Assembly (NCBI GenBank): GCA_037441475.1
Contig: JBBISB010000001.1
Coordinates: 638,988 to 670,987 of the forward strand
DNA from: Candidatus Iainarchaeum sp.
GTDB taxonomy: Archaea; Iainarchaeota; Iainarchaeia; Iainarchaeales; CSSED10-239
Direction of reading: 5' to 3'
Length of the DNA: 32,000 bases
Shown here: one piece after another, positions 13,352 to 32,000 of the stretch
Numbering within the stretch: the first letter of the stretch is position 1
Layout: the number at the start of each line of letters is the position of its first letter
The notes under the pieces: generated by a model
Database searches by the model: none
The model's input: only the letters and a program-made list of their open reading frames with translations
Told to the model about the DNA's origin: nothing
Made by a program: the position numbers and the translations under genes

Positions 13352-16150
13352 ATGAAGAAAATAAAAAATAAATTAGTTATTAAAAAAAAAGAGAAGAAAG
13401 ATATGAATAAAAATAAAAAAGCCCAGGTCTCAATAGAGATGATAATTATTTTATCTGTTTTAATTTTAGGGGCAGTAGTATTTGCATCTTTACTTCTAGG
13501 CTTTTTTAATAAAAGTGTTGATAGAAACACAGATGTTGATGATGTAGCAAGTAATACTGTTAATAGCTTCATTAAAGATCTTGTAAATTATAATGATAGT
13601 AATAATCAAACCACTCCAAGTCCAACACCAATATTTTATAATCTAGTATTAACTCCAAACAATCCTTCTTTTGGAACAGCAAACACCTCTGGTAGTTATC
13701 AGTCAGGGTCTTTAGTAACTGTTACAGCAACTCCTAGTGCAGGTTATTCTTTTGTAAACTGGACAATCACTTCAACAGGTGTGGTTGCAAGTACAAATGC
13801 AAGTTATTCTTTTAATATGCCTTCAAGTAATTTAAGCTTATCAGCAAACTTTGTTTTAGCCCCTCCTACAAACTGTACTTTAACCTTAAACAGAAATCCT
13901 GTTTCAGGTGGAACAGTTTCAGGCGCAGGGACTTTTCCTTGTAATTCTTCTGTGACAGCAACAGCAACTCCTGCAATTAACTATGCTTTCACTAATTGGA
14001 CAACAACAAGTGGGACTGTTACAACAAACCATTATACTTTTAATTTAAATTCTTCTCAAACATTAACAGCAAACTTTACACCTTCTGCTTATAATCTTAA
14101 TTTAACAAAATCAGGAAGTGGAACTGGAACTGTTACAAGTTCTCCTGTTGGTATATCTTGTGGTTCAAGTTGTACTACAGCATCTTATGCTTTTCCTGTT
14201 AATCAACTTGTTACTTTAACAGCAACTGTTGTTAGTGGACATACTTTTGCAGGTTGGTCAGGGGATTGTTCAGGCACAAATCAAACCTGTACTGTTACAA
14301 TGTCTCAAGCAAGAAATGTAACTGCAACTTTTAATCTTCCAAACATATATTTATTATCTGTATCTAAAGAAAATCCGCTTGGTGGCTGGGTTGTAAGTTC
14401 TGGACCTACCCTAGGTATTAGTTGTGGTTCTGATTGTTCTGAAATTTATTCTTTAGGAGTTAATGTTTCTTTAACAACAACAAATCTTCTTCCAGGTTAT
14501 ACTTTTGTTGAATGGAGAGATGCTTGTACAGGATCTGCAGCTATCTGTTCATTTACTATGGATGGTCCAAAATATGTAACTGCTGTTTTTGCTCCTATTA
14601 ATCATACTTTAAATGTAAATAAAGTAAATCCTTCTTACGGTCTTGTACAGACTGTTTCTCCATCTACAGGAATTATCTGTGGTCTTGATTGCTCTGAAAG
14701 TTATTTTTATGGAACTAATGTTACTTTAAATGCTTCTGGTTTAAGTGGGGGAACTTTTGCAAGATGGTCTGGTGCTGGTTGTTCAGGCACAGATAACTGT
14801 ATAGTTACAATGGATGCTGCAAAAACTGTAACTGCAACTTTTAATGCTCCTGTTTCAAATTATTTATTAACTGTTAATAAGAATGGTACTGGTTCAGGAA
14901 GAGTTGTAAGTTCTACAATAGGTATTGATTGTGGAAGTACATGTTCTGCAAATTATGCTCAAGGAACAGTTATTAGTTTAACAGCTAATCCTGATGCAGG
15001 AAATACTTTTACTGGATGGTTAGGAGATTGTTCTGGAACTGGTCAATGTTTTGTGACTATGGATTCTGCAAAAAATGTTACTGCTGTATTTAATGCTACT
15101 AATTCATTCATTTCTAAATGGGTTACAAATAATTCTGAAGAAAGTAATTCTAATCAAATAAAATTACCGCTTGTTTCTTCTGGAACTTATAAATTTACAG
15201 TATATTGGGGAGATGGAACTACAAATACTATAACCACTTGGAATTCTTCAAATGCAACCCATACATACTCTTCACCTGGAGAGTACACAATATATATCTC
15301 AGGTGTAATAAATGGATTTTCATTTAATAATTCTGGAGATAAACTTAAATTAACTCAAATTTCAAAGTGGGGACCATTAAGACTTGGAAATACAGGTTCT
15401 TATTTCTATGGTGCACAAAACCTAACAATAACTGCAACAGATGTTTTAGATTTAACTGGTACTACAAATTTATCTTTAATGTTTAGTAACTGTTCTTCAA
15501 TAACAACAATTCCTTCTATTAATAGTTGGAATGTTTCAAATGTTACAAATATGGGATTTATGTTTTATTATGCAAGTCAGTTTAATAGTCCTTTAAATAA
15601 TTGGAATGTTTCAAATGTAACGAATATGCAGAGTATGTTTTATGGTGCAACTAATTTCAACCAACCAATCGGAGATTGGAATGTTTCAAATGTAACGAAT
15701 ATGAGTAATATGTTTTCTTATGCAACTGCTTTCAACCAACCAATCGGTTCTTGGAATGTTTCAAAAGTAACTACAATGCAAAGAATGTTTTTTCGTGCTT
15801 CTAATTTTAATAGACCTGTAGGAGATTGGAATGTTTCAAGTGTGAATAATATGGAAGGTATGTTTTTGAATGCATCTAGCTTTAATCAACCTCTTGGTAA
15901 TTGGAATCCAATAAATGTAAATAATTTTTCAATGTTTATTTCTAATACCAGGTGTTGTATTTTATCTACTGCAAATTATGATAATTTATTAATTGGATGG
16001 TCTTCTAAAAATTTGCAAAGAAATGTTAGATTAGATGTAGGTACAAGATATAGCTCAGCAGGTGAAACTGCAAGACAATCAATTATAACTAACTATAATT
16101 GGTATATTCATGATAATGGTAAGCAGTGGTTAAAAATATTTATAAATTAA
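13352..16150 (+). CDS. very large surface protein: class III signal peptide + 6 InlB-B-type repeats (4 with conserved Cys quartets) + DUF285/BspA-like repeat domain
   Basis: N-terminus ...MNKNKKA|QVSIEMIIILSVLILGAVVFASLL; alternative start at 13403. Four modules of the form GISCGS.C...Y..G..V.LTA....G.TF.GW.G.CSG...C.VTM...K.VTA.F. C-terminal WNVSNVTNM..MF..A..FNQPIG repeats. Paralog of 11434..13218. Confidence 0.8.
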   Translation: MKKIKNKLVIKKKEKKDMNKNKKAQVSIEMIIILSVLILGAVVFASLLLGFFNKSVDRNTDVDDVASNTVNSFIKDLVNYNDSNNQTTPSPTPIFYNLVLTPNNPSFGTANTSGSYQSGSLVTVTATPSAGYSFVNWTITSTGVVASTNASYSFNMPSSNLSLSANFVLAPPTNCTLTLNRNPVSGGTVSGAGTFPCNSSVTATATPAINYAFTNWTTTSGTVTTNHYTFNLNSSQTLTANFTPSAYNLNLTKSGSGTGTVTSSPVGISCGSSCTTASYAFPVNQLVTLTATVVSGHTFAGWSGDCSGTNQTCTVTMSQARNVTATFNLPNIYLLSVSKENPLGGWVVSSGPTLGISCGSDCSEIYSLGVNVSLTTTNLLPGYTFVEWRDACTGSAAICSFTMDGPKYVTAVFAPINHTLNVNKVNPSYGLVQTVSPSTGIICGLDCSESYFYGTNVTLNASGLSGGTFARWSGAGCSGTDNCIVTMDAAKTVTATFNAPVSNYLLTVNKNGTGSGRVVSSTIGIDCGSTCSANYAQGTVISLTANPDAGNTFTGWLGDCSGTGQCFVTMDSAKNVTAVFNATNSFISKWVTNNSEESNSNQIKLPLVSSGTYKFTVYWGDGTTNTITTWNSSNATHTYSSPGEYTIYISGVINGFSFNNSGDKLKLTQISKWGPLRLGNTGSYFYGAQNLTITATDVLDLTGTTNLSLMFSNCSSITTIPSINSWNVSNVTNMGFMFYYASQFNSPLNNWNVSNVTNMQSMFYGATNFNQPIGDWNVSNVTNMSNMFSYATAFNQPIGSWNVSKVTTMQRMFFRASNFNRPVGDWNVSSVNNMEGMFLNASSFNQPLGNWNPINVNNFSMFISNTRCCILSTANYDNLLIGWSSKNLQRNVRLDVGTRYSSAGETARQSIITNYNWYIHDNGKQWLKIFIN

Positions 16151-27347: not shown

Positions 27348-27365
27348 TGTGTACAAGTGTACACA
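27348..27365. promoter_or_regulatory. perfect inverted repeat TGTGTACA-AG-TGTACACA, candidate operator of the MNT-HEPN pair
   Basis: 8-bp arms with a 2-bp spacer, 13 nt upstream of ATG 27378. The downstream gene begins with a winged-helix domain. Confidence 0.45.
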
Positions 27366-27377
27366 AATAGTGGTCGT

Positions 27378-27956
27378 ATGTTAGACAGATTATTTTCATC
27401 AAAAACAAGAATAAACATTTTATCTTTATTAATGTTTAATCAAGATTCTTCCTTTCATCTTAGAGAGATTGCAAAATTAACTAAAAGCTTTCCTTCTCAA
27501 ACTTCTAAGGAATTATCTAATCTTGAATTATTAAATTTAATTATTAAAACAAAAAAAAGTAATCTTTCTATATATAAAATAAATAAAGATAATCTATTTT
27601 TAGCAGACTTAAAAAATATTTTTCTAAAAACTGAGTTTATAGGTTCAAAAATTAAAGAAAAATTAATTAATCAAGTAGACTTTTGTCTAATTTTTGGATC
27701 TTTTGCAAAAGGTATAGAAAATTCAAAAAGTGATCTTGATATATTAATAATATCTGATGTTTTAAAAGAAAATAATTTATTAAAGATTATTCAAGAGTTA
27801 GAAAATGATTTAAAAAGAGATATAAATTATATTTTATGGAGTAATAAAGACTTTATAAAAAAATCAAAAGATAACCATTTATTAAAAACAATTAATAAGG
27901 ATAAGATTATAATGTTAATTGGAGATGAGAATAATTTCAGAAGAAAAATCAATTGA
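27378..27956 (+). CDS. wHTH-fused minimal nucleotidyltransferase (MNT), antitoxin-type partner of HEPN
   Basis: N-terminal ArsR-like wHTH (TRINILSLLMFNQDSSFHLREIAKLT). NTase motif FGSFAKGIENSKSDLDILIISD. The track GTG start at 27357 lies inside the palindrome, so ATG 27378 is preferred. Confidence 0.7.
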   Translation: MLDRLFSSKTRINILSLLMFNQDSSFHLREIAKLTKSFPSQTSKELSNLELLNLIIKTKKSNLSIYKINKDNLFLADLKNIFLKTEFIGSKIKEKLINQVDFCLIFGSFAKGIENSKSDLDILIISDVLKENNLLKIIQELENDLKRDINYILWSNKDFIKKSKDNHLLKTINKDKIIMLIGDENNFRRKIN

Positions 27957-28254
27957 TTGGGAAAGAATAGAAACAACTCAAGAGTTTGTTGAAAATTCAT
28001 TAAAGCATGCTTTTAGGGATTTAGAAACTGCAAGAAAAATGTATACTACTCAAGATTATGATTGGGCGTTGTCTATATCTTATAATGCAATGCTTCAGGC
28101 TGCAAAATCTTTAATGTTTTTTAAAGGATATCGCCCAACAGGTTATTCTAAACATTTATCAATAATTAATTTTGTTAAAGAAAATTTTAATTCAAATATT
28201 CCTGAAGAAATATTTTTTTTAATTAATAAAACTAGAAAAAAAGACATCAGGTAG
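27919..28254 (+). CDS. HEPN domain protein (apparently truncated by a -1 frameshift; composite would end at 28358)
   Basis: ALSISYNAMLQAAKSLMFFKGYRPTGYSKH is typical of the HEPN helical core. It overlaps the MNT 3' end. After the A7 run (28236-28242) the -1 frame continues RHQVVYEEINLVSREEAAFIIEKAEYFLNIVDEIIYKK*. Confidence 0.65.
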   Translation: MEMRIISEEKSIDWERIETTQEFVENSLKHAFRDLETARKMYTTQDYDWALSISYNAMLQAAKSLMFFKGYRPTGYSKHLSIINFVKENFNSNIPEEIFFLINKTRKKDIR

Positions 28255-28398: not shown

Positions 28399-30093
28399 AT
28401 GCAAGAAACTTTTAAAAATATAATTTTAGAAAATGCTGTAAAGTATAAGGGAAAAGCAGAAATTAAGTTTATTTTAGGAACATTTTTAAAAGACTTTCCT
28501 GAATATAGACAAAAAACAAAAGAATTAACAGAAGAGCTTTTACCATTAATAGAAGAGATTAATAACTTGTCTTTAGAAAAACAACAAGATCTTTTAAAAG
28601 AAATTAATCCTTCTTTCTTTGAAAAAAAAGAAAAAGAAGAGAGAAACATCTTTGCCTTCCTTAATATCAAAGAAGGAGAAAAAGTAATTTCTTGTTTTCC
28701 TCCTGGTCCTGAAAAATATCCACATATAGGTCACTCTAAAGCAGTTTTACTTAATTATCTTTTAACAAAACAATATAATGGAGAATTTTATTTAAGGTTT
28801 GAAGATACAAACCCTAAGCTTGTTAAGCCTGAGTTTTATACAATTATGCAAGAGGATTTTAAATGGCTTGGTGTTGAATGGTCAAGAGTTGAGTATGCTT
28901 CTGATTATATAGATCTGATGAAGGAGATGGCAGAAAAGTTAATTTTAAAATCACAAGCATATGTTTGTTTCTGTTCTCCTGAAGATATGAGTAAGAATAG
29001 AGAAACATCAACTGCATGTGAGTGTAGGAAAGTATCTCCTCAAGAAAACTTAATCAAATGGAAGGAAATGGAAGGTTATCCTGAAGGAAAAGCTTCTTTA
29101 CGTTTAAAAATAGATTTAAAACATAAAAATTCAAGAATGAGAGATCCTTCAATCTTTAGAGTAATAGATTGTGAGCATCCAAGAATAGGTTACAAGCATA
29201 GAAATTATCCTACTTATGATTTTCAAAATGCTGTTTTAGATGGTTATTTTAAAACAACTCATAGACTAAGAACTGTTGAGTTTGAGATGGCTTCAGAGCT
29301 TCATCATTATATTAGAAAAATTTTAGGTCTTTATGATACATATACTTATGAGTTTGCAAGAATGAATCTTGAGGGAATGTTATCTTCTGGAAGAGCTATT
29401 AGAGAAAAGATTGAATTCGGAGAGCTTATAGGTTGGGATGATCCTTCTCTTCCTACTCTGCGTGCACTTAAAAGAAGAGGTTTTACAGCAGAGGCTATCA
29501 AGCAAATGGTTATTGAGTCTGGAATTACAAAGTCTTCTGGTTCTCTGCTTACATGGGATACAATTATTAAGTATAATAAAAGAGTTTTAAATGATTCTTC
29601 AAAAAGATTTTTCTGTATAAAGGAACCTATTGAAATAACAATTGAAAATGATCCTTGTAAGAAATATTATCTTCCTCTTCATCCTGCTCTAAATCTTGGA
29701 CAAAGAAACTTTTCTTCAAATGGTGTTTATTTAATAGAGAAAGAAGATTTTGATTATTTTAAGGAAGGAAATCTTGTAAGGCTTATGGATAATGTTAATT
29801 TTAGGGTAAATGATGGAAAGTTTGTTTTTGATTCTGAGGATTATTTATATTTTAAAAATGAACTTGCAGAAAATAAAAAAATAATACATTTCCTTCCAAA
29901 AGACCCTTCTCAATTAATAGATATTACAATCTTTACTCCTGAACATCAAACAATACAAGCAAAGGCTGAAAAAACTATTGAACAGTTGTCTGTTGGAGAT
30001 ATTGTTCAGTTTGAGAGATTTTGTTTTGCAAGACTTGATTCTTTAGAGGAAAAGGAAGGAAAGAAGGTTTATAACTTTTGGTTTACACACTAG
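28399..30093 (+). CDS. gltX: glutamate--tRNA ligase, archaeal/eukaryotic type
   Basis: 564 aa. Archaeal GluRS N-terminal helical domain (ILENAVKYKGKAE...), HIGH motif PHIGHSKA, the FEDTNP class I GlxRS signature, and a C-terminal anticodon-binding beta-barrel region. Confidence 0.9.
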   Translation: MQETFKNIILENAVKYKGKAEIKFILGTFLKDFPEYRQKTKELTEELLPLIEEINNLSLEKQQDLLKEINPSFFEKKEKEERNIFAFLNIKEGEKVISCFPPGPEKYPHIGHSKAVLLNYLLTKQYNGEFYLRFEDTNPKLVKPEFYTIMQEDFKWLGVEWSRVEYASDYIDLMKEMAEKLILKSQAYVCFCSPEDMSKNRETSTACECRKVSPQENLIKWKEMEGYPEGKASLRLKIDLKHKNSRMRDPSIFRVIDCEHPRIGYKHRNYPTYDFQNAVLDGYFKTTHRLRTVEFEMASELHHYIRKILGLYDTYTYEFARMNLEGMLSSGRAIREKIEFGELIGWDDPSLPTLRALKRRGFTAEAIKQMVIESGITKSSGSLLTWDTIIKYNKRVLNDSSKRFFCIKEPIEITIENDPCKKYYLPLHPALNLGQRNFSSNGVYLIEKEDFDYFKEGNLVRLMDNVNFRVNDGKFVFDSEDYLYFKNELAENKKIIHFLPKDPSQLIDITIFTPEHQTIQAKAEKTIEQLSVGDIVQFERFCFARLDSLEEKEGKKVYNFWFTH

Positions 30094-30296
30094 AGTCCCT
30101 TTAGAAAAGCGGCTTCACCCGGAAAGGAGTCACTTTAGAAAAGCGGCTTCACCCGGAAAGGAGTCTCTTTAGAAAAGCGGCTTCACCCGGAAAGGAGTCA
30201 CTTTAGAAAAGTGGCTTCACCCGGAAAAGAGCCCCTTTGGAAAAGTGGCTTCACCCGTAAAGGAGTTCCTTTAGAAGAACTGTTTTCGGTCAGTTC
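30093..30296. repeat. 34-bp direct tandem array (5 good copies plus 1 degenerate), about 50% GC
   Basis: Units gagtcNctttagaaaagcggcttcacccggaaag at 30093, 30127, 30161, 30195 and 30229, with a degenerate sixth at 30263. Units 1-3 differ only at position 6. Divergence increases toward the 3' end. The first base is the G of the gltX TAG stop. Confidence 0.9.
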
Positions 30297-30391
30297 ACAC
30301 CCAATGGTTTTTCATTTCCTCTGGAAAGAAAAACTAATGTTAATTTGTTTAAGAAAAAACTATATTTGTTGGACATTAAAATGGTAAGTGC

Positions 30392-30958
30392 ATGATTTCA
30401 GAAATTTATAAAGATATTTTTAAAATTACTGGAGAATCAAATCTTTATTTTCTAAAAAAAGAAAATATTGTTATTGATACAGGTTACCCTACAGACGAGC
30501 TTATGATAAAACAAGACTTATCAAAAGTTATTCCTTTAGAAGAAGTTAAAATAGTTATTTTTACACACATGCATTATGATCATGTAGGAAACTTTCATCT
30601 TTTTAAAAATGCTTCTTTCTATGCTTCCAAAGCTTCTGTTGCTTCTTTAAAGGAAGATAAATATAAGGCAATCTTACTTAAACCCTTAGCTGATAACTTT
30701 AATATAGAGGTTAAAGAAATTTCTTCTCTTCCTCTCCCAGATTATCTAGAGGTAATAGATACTCCTGGCCACTCTAAAGGCTCAATCTGTATATTTGATA
30801 AAAAAAGAAAAATTCTTTTTTCAGGAGATACTCTTTTCTTTAGAGATAACATAGGGAGAATGGATCTTCCTTTTTCTTCTCCAAAGGAGATGTCTTCTTC
30901 CTTAAAGAAGCTTTCTTCTTTAAAGTATGATATTCTTTGTCCAGGGCATGATTATTAG
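30392..30958 (+). CDS. MBL-fold metallo-hydrolase
   Basis: THMHYDHVGN (HxHxDH motif), TPGHSKGS, and DTLF...GR...PGHD. Confidence 0.8.
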   Translation: MISEIYKDIFKITGESNLYFLKKENIVIDTGYPTDELMIKQDLSKVIPLEEVKIVIFTHMHYDHVGNFHLFKNASFYASKASVASLKEDKYKAILLKPLADNFNIEVKEISSLPLPDYLEVIDTPGHSKGSICIFDKKRKILFSGDTLFFRDNIGRMDLPFSSPKEMSSSLKKLSSLKYDILCPGHDY

Positions 30959-31930: not shown

Positions 31931-32000
31931 TATTTCCTTTATAGCTATTTCCTTTATAGCTATTTCCTTTATAGCTATTTCCTTTATAGCTATTTCCTTT
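31931..32000. repeat. 15-bp direct tandem array (tatttcctttatagc), at least 4.7 copies, truncated by the window edge
   Basis: Perfect copies start at 31931, 31946, 31961 and 31976, with a partial copy at 31991-32000. Confidence 0.9.

Follow-up and report, generated by a model that had tools for sequence, protein, structure and literature searches.

The array behind gltX in a Candidatus Iainarchaeum genome and a family of dispersed, structured repeat modules

Small interspersed repeats and the gltX locus

Pneumococcal BOX elements are built as boxA-(boxB)n-boxC, with a variable number of boxB modules in tandem (Martin et al. 1992; Croucher et al. 2011, PMC3049150), and the REP (repetitive extragenic palindromic) sequences and bacterial interspersed mosaic elements (BIMEs) of enterobacteria and pseudomonads occur with REP-associated tyrosine transposases (RAYTs; PMC2817692; PMC12306157). 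The archaeal locus compared with them here is a GC-rich array of 34-nt tandem repeats that starts at the stop codon of gltX in a Candidatus Iainarchaeum genome. The window analysed is a stretch of 32,000 nt (contig C1, 638988–670987) from this metagenome-assembled genome (MAG), designated G000, which comprises 769 kb in two contigs at 28% G+C and is estimated to be 89.5% complete. In this array one dispersed, structured and family-specific module, termed A, has been amplified locally, to a copy number that differs between assemblies. Together with a second module, B, and others, A forms a family of small structured interspersed repeats that is specific to one family of DPANN archaea. In the explanation favoured here, the array is probably a copy-number-unstable tandem amplification of module A that would be transcribed as a structure at the 3′ end of gltX.

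In common with BOX, modules A and B are small, modular interspersed repeats in which one internal module varies in tandem number, and they have no clear transposase of their own and occasionally lie in coding sequence. Strong RNA stem-loops are likewise predicted where the repeats are co-transcribed with neighbouring genes (for BOX, PMC3049150). A module mosaic of variable tandem number was found at the gltX locus itself, where A occurs once in the sister species G006 and three to five times in the assemblies of G000, and where G003 and G004 carry the order B–half-B–A. Unlike BOX, the modules have no sequence relationship to boxA, boxB or boxC (Rfam and other comparisons), are present in far fewer copies per genome, and are positioned with single-base precision on tRNA, 5S rRNA and stop-codon boundaries; their host is an archaeon, and the likeness is one of analogy only. 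No terminal inverted repeats were recognised in the alignments of A and B.

With REP sequences and BIMEs, the modules share the form of imperfect 20–40 nt palindromes at gene 3′ ends, often no more than 15 nt from a stop codon, the clustering in mosaics with other motifs, and the roles proposed for such elements in mRNA 3′-end protection and termination. The characteristic REP situation, that of a short imperfect palindrome lying extragenically at a gene 3′ end, was indeed observed. In contrast to REP systems, there is no RAYT in G000, A and B number tens of copies rather than hundreds, their clusters are direct tandems rather than alternating, and B possesses an additional covarying pair between loop and tail. 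Pneumococcal SPRITE elements, which are terminator-like, and further dispersed repeats of that kind (PMC3049150) resemble the modules in being dispersed hairpins followed by a U-rich tract at gene ends; the difference is that here a conserved 11-nt tail parts the stem from the T-run, and that a scan for bacterial terminators came back empty. Since G000 has no RAYT, the nearest analogues are BOX elements and REP/BIME mosaics, without homology to either.

Modules A and B: sequence, structure and dispersal

Tandem Repeats Finder reports a repeat at 30093–30276 with a period of 34, 5.4 copies, 91% matches and a score of 298. No other non-coding tandem repeat in the 769-kb genome scores as high, and none of the others is GC-rich; the array has 48.9% G+C compared with 28.4% for the contig. 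The features of the locus are as follows; E-values from such short calibrated covariance models (R1 for module A, R2 for module B) are rough.

28399–30093, + strand: gltX, archaeal-type glutamyl-tRNA synthetase of 564 aa (list of open reading frames (ORFs); Pfam tRNA-synt_1c, E = 7e-74, and both anticodon-binding domains)
30093–30262, + strand: five full 34-nt copies of module A (R1, 56–58 bits per unit)
30263–30277, + strand: sixth A unit, truncated to 15 nt and fused to module B (from the sequence, and from comparison with the single A–B junction of G006)
30276–30312, + strand: module B (R2, 56.1 bits, E about 1e-12; covariation across 62 distinct copies)
30315–30327, no strand assigned: TTTCC-TCT-GGAAA dyad, at chance level and not conserved
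30351–30368, + strand: purine-rich tract and TATATTT, centred about 27 nt before the ATG of the next gene (read from the sequence)
30392–30958, + strand: metallo-beta-lactamase-fold (MBL) hydrolase gene, the conserved downstream neighbour of gltX (Pfam Lactamase_B, E = 3e-26)

A sequence-only reading of the window had described a GC-rich 34-nt array running from the gltX stop codon, and this description was borne out. Five full units and one truncated unit lie head to tail, and the array opens with the G of the TAG stop (30093). The units are direct throughout and the period is no longer than the unit, leaving no spacers, in keeping with the earlier view that the array is not a CRISPR. Units 1–3 differ at position 6 alone (C/A/T) and units 4 and 5 carry two and four changes, so that divergence does rise downstream. 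The figure of 17/34 G+C per unit holds for units 2–3, while unit 1 has 18/34. That the array is non-coding also stands, as the ORF list contains no frame of at least 40 aa spanning it. The junction between the sixth A unit and B falls at an internal AGAAG that resembles the A unit's own 3′ end, which suggests slippage or illegitimate recombination between two A-rich tracts.

Each module A folds as a hairpin of GAGYC, a loop containing a CTTT-AGA-AAAG mini-stem, and GGCTT, followed by a CACCC tail. A and B have a common build of stem, loop ending in G-rich bases, stem and CACCC, and A looks like a long-loop variant of B. In the B copy of the array, a 6-bp hairpin is formed between 30277–30282 and 30291–30296, the loop GG (30288–30289) is predicted to pair with the CC of the tail (30301–30302), and the tail CACCCAATGG is followed by a T5 run at 30308–30312.

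Alignments of dispersed copies support these structures. Pairing is kept in 95.5% of the stem cells of A, which show two compensatory pairs (as in the change from GAGCC/GGCTT to GAACC/GGTTT) and an invariant closing G-U wobble. Across the 62 distinct copies of B, 95.1% of cells pair and seven of the eight pairs show changes on both sides; none of 500 shuffles reached the observed pairing value, and slid controls collapsed. The highest mutual information in the B alignment links a loop base to a tail base, which are G:C in 16 rows and C:G in 37 and which lie outside the search model. This pair and an adjacent, nearly invariant G:C pair would give B the topology of an H-type pseudoknot. Two tRNA-Gly trailers of G000 (tcc, C1:27846–27918; gcc, C1:222948–223020) carry B-like hairpins, with the stems AAACTT/AAGTTT and AAGCTT/AAGCTT, that R2 does not score and that appear to be more distant members of the family; by eye, the loop GCC of the gcc trailer faces a tail GGC, which fits loop–tail pairing.

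The fold is also specific to one strand. Folding of array plus B, a check that the sequence-only reading had proposed, gave −78.3 kcal/mol for the sense RNA (z = −3.6, equalled by 0 of 200 shuffles) and −64.0 kcal/mol for the antisense RNA (z = +0.2). Since the sense strand folds better than its shuffled counterparts and the antisense strand does not, the structure belongs to the gltX-sense strand, and this predicted asymmetry points to RNA or a single DNA strand rather than to duplex binding sites. Composite C–A–B elements (module C is described below) and single A–B copies fold weakly, with z between −0.9 and −1.6.

When the unit was sought elsewhere, as had also been proposed, a fuzzy whole-genome search located module A as single copies at three other places in G000:

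behind rps7, encoding ribosomal protein S7
on the TAG stop codon of a gene for a KaiC-like ATPase
immediately behind tRNA-Ser(gct)

Module B likewise follows tRNA-Ala(tgc), tRNA-Ser(cga) and the A copy at tRNA-Ser(gct) in G000, and each of the three canonical B copies of the genome precedes a run of T5–T7. Among 22 genomes of the DPANN family, A was matched by R1 in 10 (0–7 matches per genome) and B by R2 in 19 (1–11 copies per genome); G007, G011 and G015 gave no B match in these searches. At E ≤ 1e-4, 8 of 11 sampled genomes of the family contained B, as opposed to none of 109 that represent 31 other families of the order. The B copies of G003, a genome in one contig, are scattered, at 38, 172, 204, 563 and 719 kb. 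Rfam returned nothing meaningful for the window and six related loci at gathering or permissive thresholds, exact-pattern scans for the A unit in public metagenome and genome contig collections gave no match, a scan of viral contigs found no module B, and BLAST against phage and plasmid collections was equally negative.

The genomic context of B was tabulated for 65 copies in the loci retrieved, around which gene calls are crude:

15 of 65: abutting the 3′ end of a co-oriented tRNA with a gap of −2 to +2 (at least eight tRNA genes, with two more missed by ARAGORN)
4 of 65: directly after a 5S rRNA
10 of 65: first bases overlapping a TGA or TAG stop
7 of 65: directly after another B

Where the upstream neighbour could be called, it was co-oriented with B in 33 cases versus 9, and with A in 12 versus 2. 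At one such site in G000, B stands at the end of a presumed 16S–tRNA-Ala unit: the GC-rich block at C1:31461–32700, probably the 16S rRNA gene, adjoins tRNA-Ala(tgc), a module B and a T7 run (region C1:31461–33164). The other long GC-rich block, C2:58671–61030, is presumably the 23S gene; with one on each contig, the rRNA genes appear to be unlinked.

A third module, C, often precedes A and B in genus g4; it was searched for in G000 and is absent there. Module C, a set of G-runs ending in GTCCAGTG, is conserved in that genus, follows AT-rich, promoter-like DNA, and precedes A, arrays of B-like units, or both, including an array of 4.8 copies with a 52-nt period. It was seen at L035, L038, L040 and L032 (G021), L027 and L036 (G018), L051 (G017) and L090 (G020:C30, 364–683). 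These C-led loci may be independent small-RNA genes.

Comparison of the spacer between gltX and the MBL gene shows how its content differs between lineages:

Genus g4: MBL gene 17–21 nt after the gltX stop, with a GGAG motif and neither module, probably one operon
G003 and G004: gltX stop, B, a half-B hairpin, A, then T6
G002: gltX stop, then a degenerate B only
G006 (sister species): gltX stop, one A, then B
G000: gltX stop, 5.4 copies of A, B, then T5

Within the G000 array, the ancestral bases seen in the dispersed copies persist in unit 5 (C4 and T18) and in unit 4 (T18), and units 1–3 share the derived T4 and C18. As these three are derived and nearly identical, the latest duplications adjoin gltX.

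The same locus was retrieved from other assemblies by exact-protein look-ups. In those of the same strain, the flanks match with 0 mismatches over 1.2–3.2 kb on each side, and there are five full units in the window, four in an NCBI MAG contig (L103) and three in a Logan contig (L105); in a second run, the contig breaks inside the array. The Logan contigs derive from runs SRR11582162 and SRR11582163. With three, four or five units beside identical flanks, the number five is specific to this assembly or to one variant. Arrays of the modules were also found in G002 (at least 1.6 copies of A, at a contig end), G003 (two abutting B), G012 (three B copies) and G020 (52-nt and 49-nt B-like arrays).

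A different array, a perfect 15-nt tandem repeat at 31931–32000 of the window (C1:670918–670987), runs into a 100-N gap at the end of C1, and contig C2 begins (C2:6–55) with its reverse complement. This inverted minisatellite probably caused the assembly break, and its presence at both contig ends argues against the idea that the 34-nt and 15-nt arrays bracket a mobile two-gene module. Elsewhere in the window, a nucleotidyltransferase (Polbeta/NTP_transf_2) and HEPN pair at 27357–28254, a typical MNT-HEPN toxin–antitoxin-like module that is also present in Logan contigs, is flanked by a gene for a class I Trp/Tyr-type tRNA synthetase and by gltX. A coding tandem repeat of 75/150 nt occurs at 15526–15907 in a large surface-protein gene, with a similar one at C1:205018–205283.

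Proposed role and rival explanations

It is proposed that module B came to lie behind the gltX stop in the ancestor of the genus, and that module A was added at the boundary between stop and B on the branch that led to G000 and G006. A would then have multiplied in G000 by replication slippage or unequal recombination, with the newest copies next to gltX. The A(n)–B stack is probably transcribed with gltX as its 3′ untranslated region (UTR), ahead of the oligo-T tract, and its sense strand alone would fold into stable hairpins just before the oligo-U tract of the transcript. Any role in termination or stability would be that of a 3′-end structure, helping termination or blocking 3′-to-5′ decay, and the stack would separate gltX from an MBL gene that may now have its own promoter. 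The AT-rich stretch beyond the dyad, which the sequence-only reading had pointed out, is present and could represent this promoter: the segment at 30351–30368 is a candidate archaeal B recognition element and TATA box for a leaderless MBL mRNA, and G003 has a similar AAAAACTATGTTTG at the place of the TATATTT tract. The number of A copies itself is probably not under selection. The sequence-only reading had also listed a structured 3′ UTR and the remnant of a mobile element as options; each is right in part, as the modules are a dispersed, historically mobile, structured family at gene 3′ ends.

Several observations weigh against this explanation. The B stem of the array ends 11 nt before the T5 run and a scan of 29900–30500 found no bacterial terminator, and a bacterial-type intrinsic terminator was rejected on these two grounds; archaeal termination needs no hairpin. 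T-runs follow 27 of the 65 B copies, compared with 17 of 65 for an A-run control. Four B copies, at two orthologous sites, abut the 5′ end of an antisense tRNA, and at least four lie antisense and in frame inside genes, counting only genes with Pfam support (a classifier for copies inside open frames over-called, as GC-rich repeats open spurious frames):

L070 (G018:C7), 1501–1537 and 1906–1942, antisense: two in-frame B copies in the disordered N-terminus of FtsY
L085 (G009:C3), 515–551, antisense: in-frame B in a PLD-like protein
L088 (G018:C1), 507–543, antisense: in-frame B in a Topo-zinc-ribbon protein

Every intragenic B encodes a peptide like (A/V)RE(P/L)(S/N)ET(G/S)S, and antisense copies within genes can have no role as 3′-end signals at those sites. 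In addition, the matches come from related genomes and are not independent, and the hairpin part of the alignment was fitted to the model, which the pseudoknot pair was not. The differences in copy number may in part reflect assembly collapse at k = 31 rather than real polymorphism, because a 31-mer across the junctions of units 1/2 and 3/4 is common to both; collapse or not, the copy number is neither robust nor fixed.

The interpretation favoured by the sequence-only reading, in which the 34-mers and the dyad form a replication origin with mini-origin recognition box (ORB) sites or an iteron array, bound by Orc1/Cdc6 or Rep next to AT-rich DNA, is extremely improbable. Direct repeats do lie beside AT-rich DNA, and the cumulative GC skew, run on a scaffold with gaps and a second contig, formally reaches its minimum at 640 kb, at a distance of 29 kb from the array; against this, the curve runs as a flat plateau between about 390 and 670 kb and changes sign near 390–420 kb, beside orc1/cdc6 at 413 kb. 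Taken alone, the skew does not settle the matter. The suggested look at orc1/cdc6 found a single gene (Cdc6_C match, C1:412.8–414 kb), which is 256 kb from the array at 669 kb and is not accompanied by ORB-like repeats. The array units are all direct, with neither an inverted ORB pair nor an unwinding element between them. The dyad at 30315–30327 exists as described, but not as a functional site: perfect 5+3+5 dyads occur 3.2 times per kb in G000 and the TTTCC-TCT-GGAAA pattern four times in the genome, and it is missing at the corresponding position of the sister genomes G003 and G006, so that a dyad both at chance frequency and unconserved is not considered a feature. The origin was rejected mainly because the A unit is dispersed, standing behind unrelated genes and a tRNA, and because the spacer is missing in genus g4, where just 17–21 nt part the two genes. 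A variable copy number and absence from relatives had been named beforehand as signs against an origin; the copy number does vary, and the array as such is absent from relatives. Plasmid iterons were rejected as there is no rep gene beside the array, whose neighbours are gltX and the MBL hydrolase gene, and no plasmid or phage similarity. A spacer-less CRISPR-like or small-RNA array, its units cut by a hairpin-specific endonuclease, is very unlikely: the 34-nt length, internal hairpin and GAAAG 3′ end are presumably like those of archaeal CRISPR repeats, and the B-like arrays of genus g4 follow a promoter-like AT-rich region and the leader-like module C, set against the lack of spacers, of any Cas1 or Cas6, of an Rfam match and, in G000, of module C. 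A true CRISPR array was rejected for want of spacers and of Cas1 or Cas6. There is also little to recommend an array of sites for a DNA-binding regulator of the MBL gene, although the sites are repeated some 100–300 bp upstream of its start and each unit contains short internal dyads. The dispersed copies lie at gene 3′ ends rather than upstream of a common regulon, conservation is seen in stems on one strand that tolerate G-U pairs, and the unit number ranges from one to five between very close genomes.

A less remote but still unlikely explanation is that A and B are non-autonomous DNA elements, comparable to REP sequences or miniature inverted-repeat transposable elements, without any RNA role; their accumulation at gene ends would follow from the harmlessness of insertions there, and the array would be a neutral minisatellite. 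This accounts for mosaic and truncated copies, for the in-frame B copies in the FtsY, PLD-like and Topo-zinc-ribbon genes, for modules that occupy some orthologous sites but not others, and for unit numbers that vary by assembly, with assemblies breaking inside arrays. It also fits a complete A nested in a B loop, immediately ahead of the stem's 3′ strand (L026, G021:C1, 1479–1550), in a composite that sits on the TAG stop of a long ORF. Together, the intragenic and antisense copies and this nested insertion indicate that the modules have spread as DNA as well. Several features are nevertheless poorly explained by DNA spread alone. The copy number is low (1–11 B per genome), orthologous sites at 5S rRNA, tRNA-Ser and the KaiC-like gene are kept across genera with compensatory stem changes, the co-orientation bias is strong, and the invariant G-U wobble and strand-specific folding point to a transcript, not duplex DNA. 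Filled and empty sites (gltX, tRNA-Ser(gct) and the G021 B loop) gave no sign of a consistent target duplication, with at most 1–2 nt of ambiguous overlap, at few sites and judged by eye. Y1/RAYT transposases (PF01797) are absent from G000 and occur in 3 of the 22 family genomes, uncorrelated with B counts. Mobilisation by RAYT or TnpB was rejected, since PF01797 and PF07282 are scarce among these genomes and do not track the number of repeats.

Significance of the module family

The idea of a transcribed A(n)–B structure may be taken further. It is possible, if on balance doubtful, that A and B constitute an undescribed, lineage-specific archaeal 3′-end RNA signal. As one joint proposal, the hairpin, short pseudoknot and CACCC tail would mark or protect the 3′ ends of tRNA, 5S rRNA and mRNA; the signal would have spread to new gene ends, and occasionally into genes, without a RAYT-type transposase; and the length of the gltX array would tune either the stability of the gltX mRNA or read-through into the MBL gene.

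Taken by itself, the array is an unstable minisatellite of minor importance that should not be annotated as a replication origin. What it exposes is a repeat family specific to one DPANN family. This repeat family joins traits that are usually found apart: base-precise boundaries, conserved RNA-type structure with a loop–tail pair, BOX-like amplification, and in-frame insertions in essential genes, all with no recognisable transposase. To our knowledge, transcript 3′-end formation in DPANN archaea is essentially unstudied. In these MAGs, modules A and B can serve in practice to mark assembly breaks and strain variation, and they are concrete, testable candidates for termination or stability signals.

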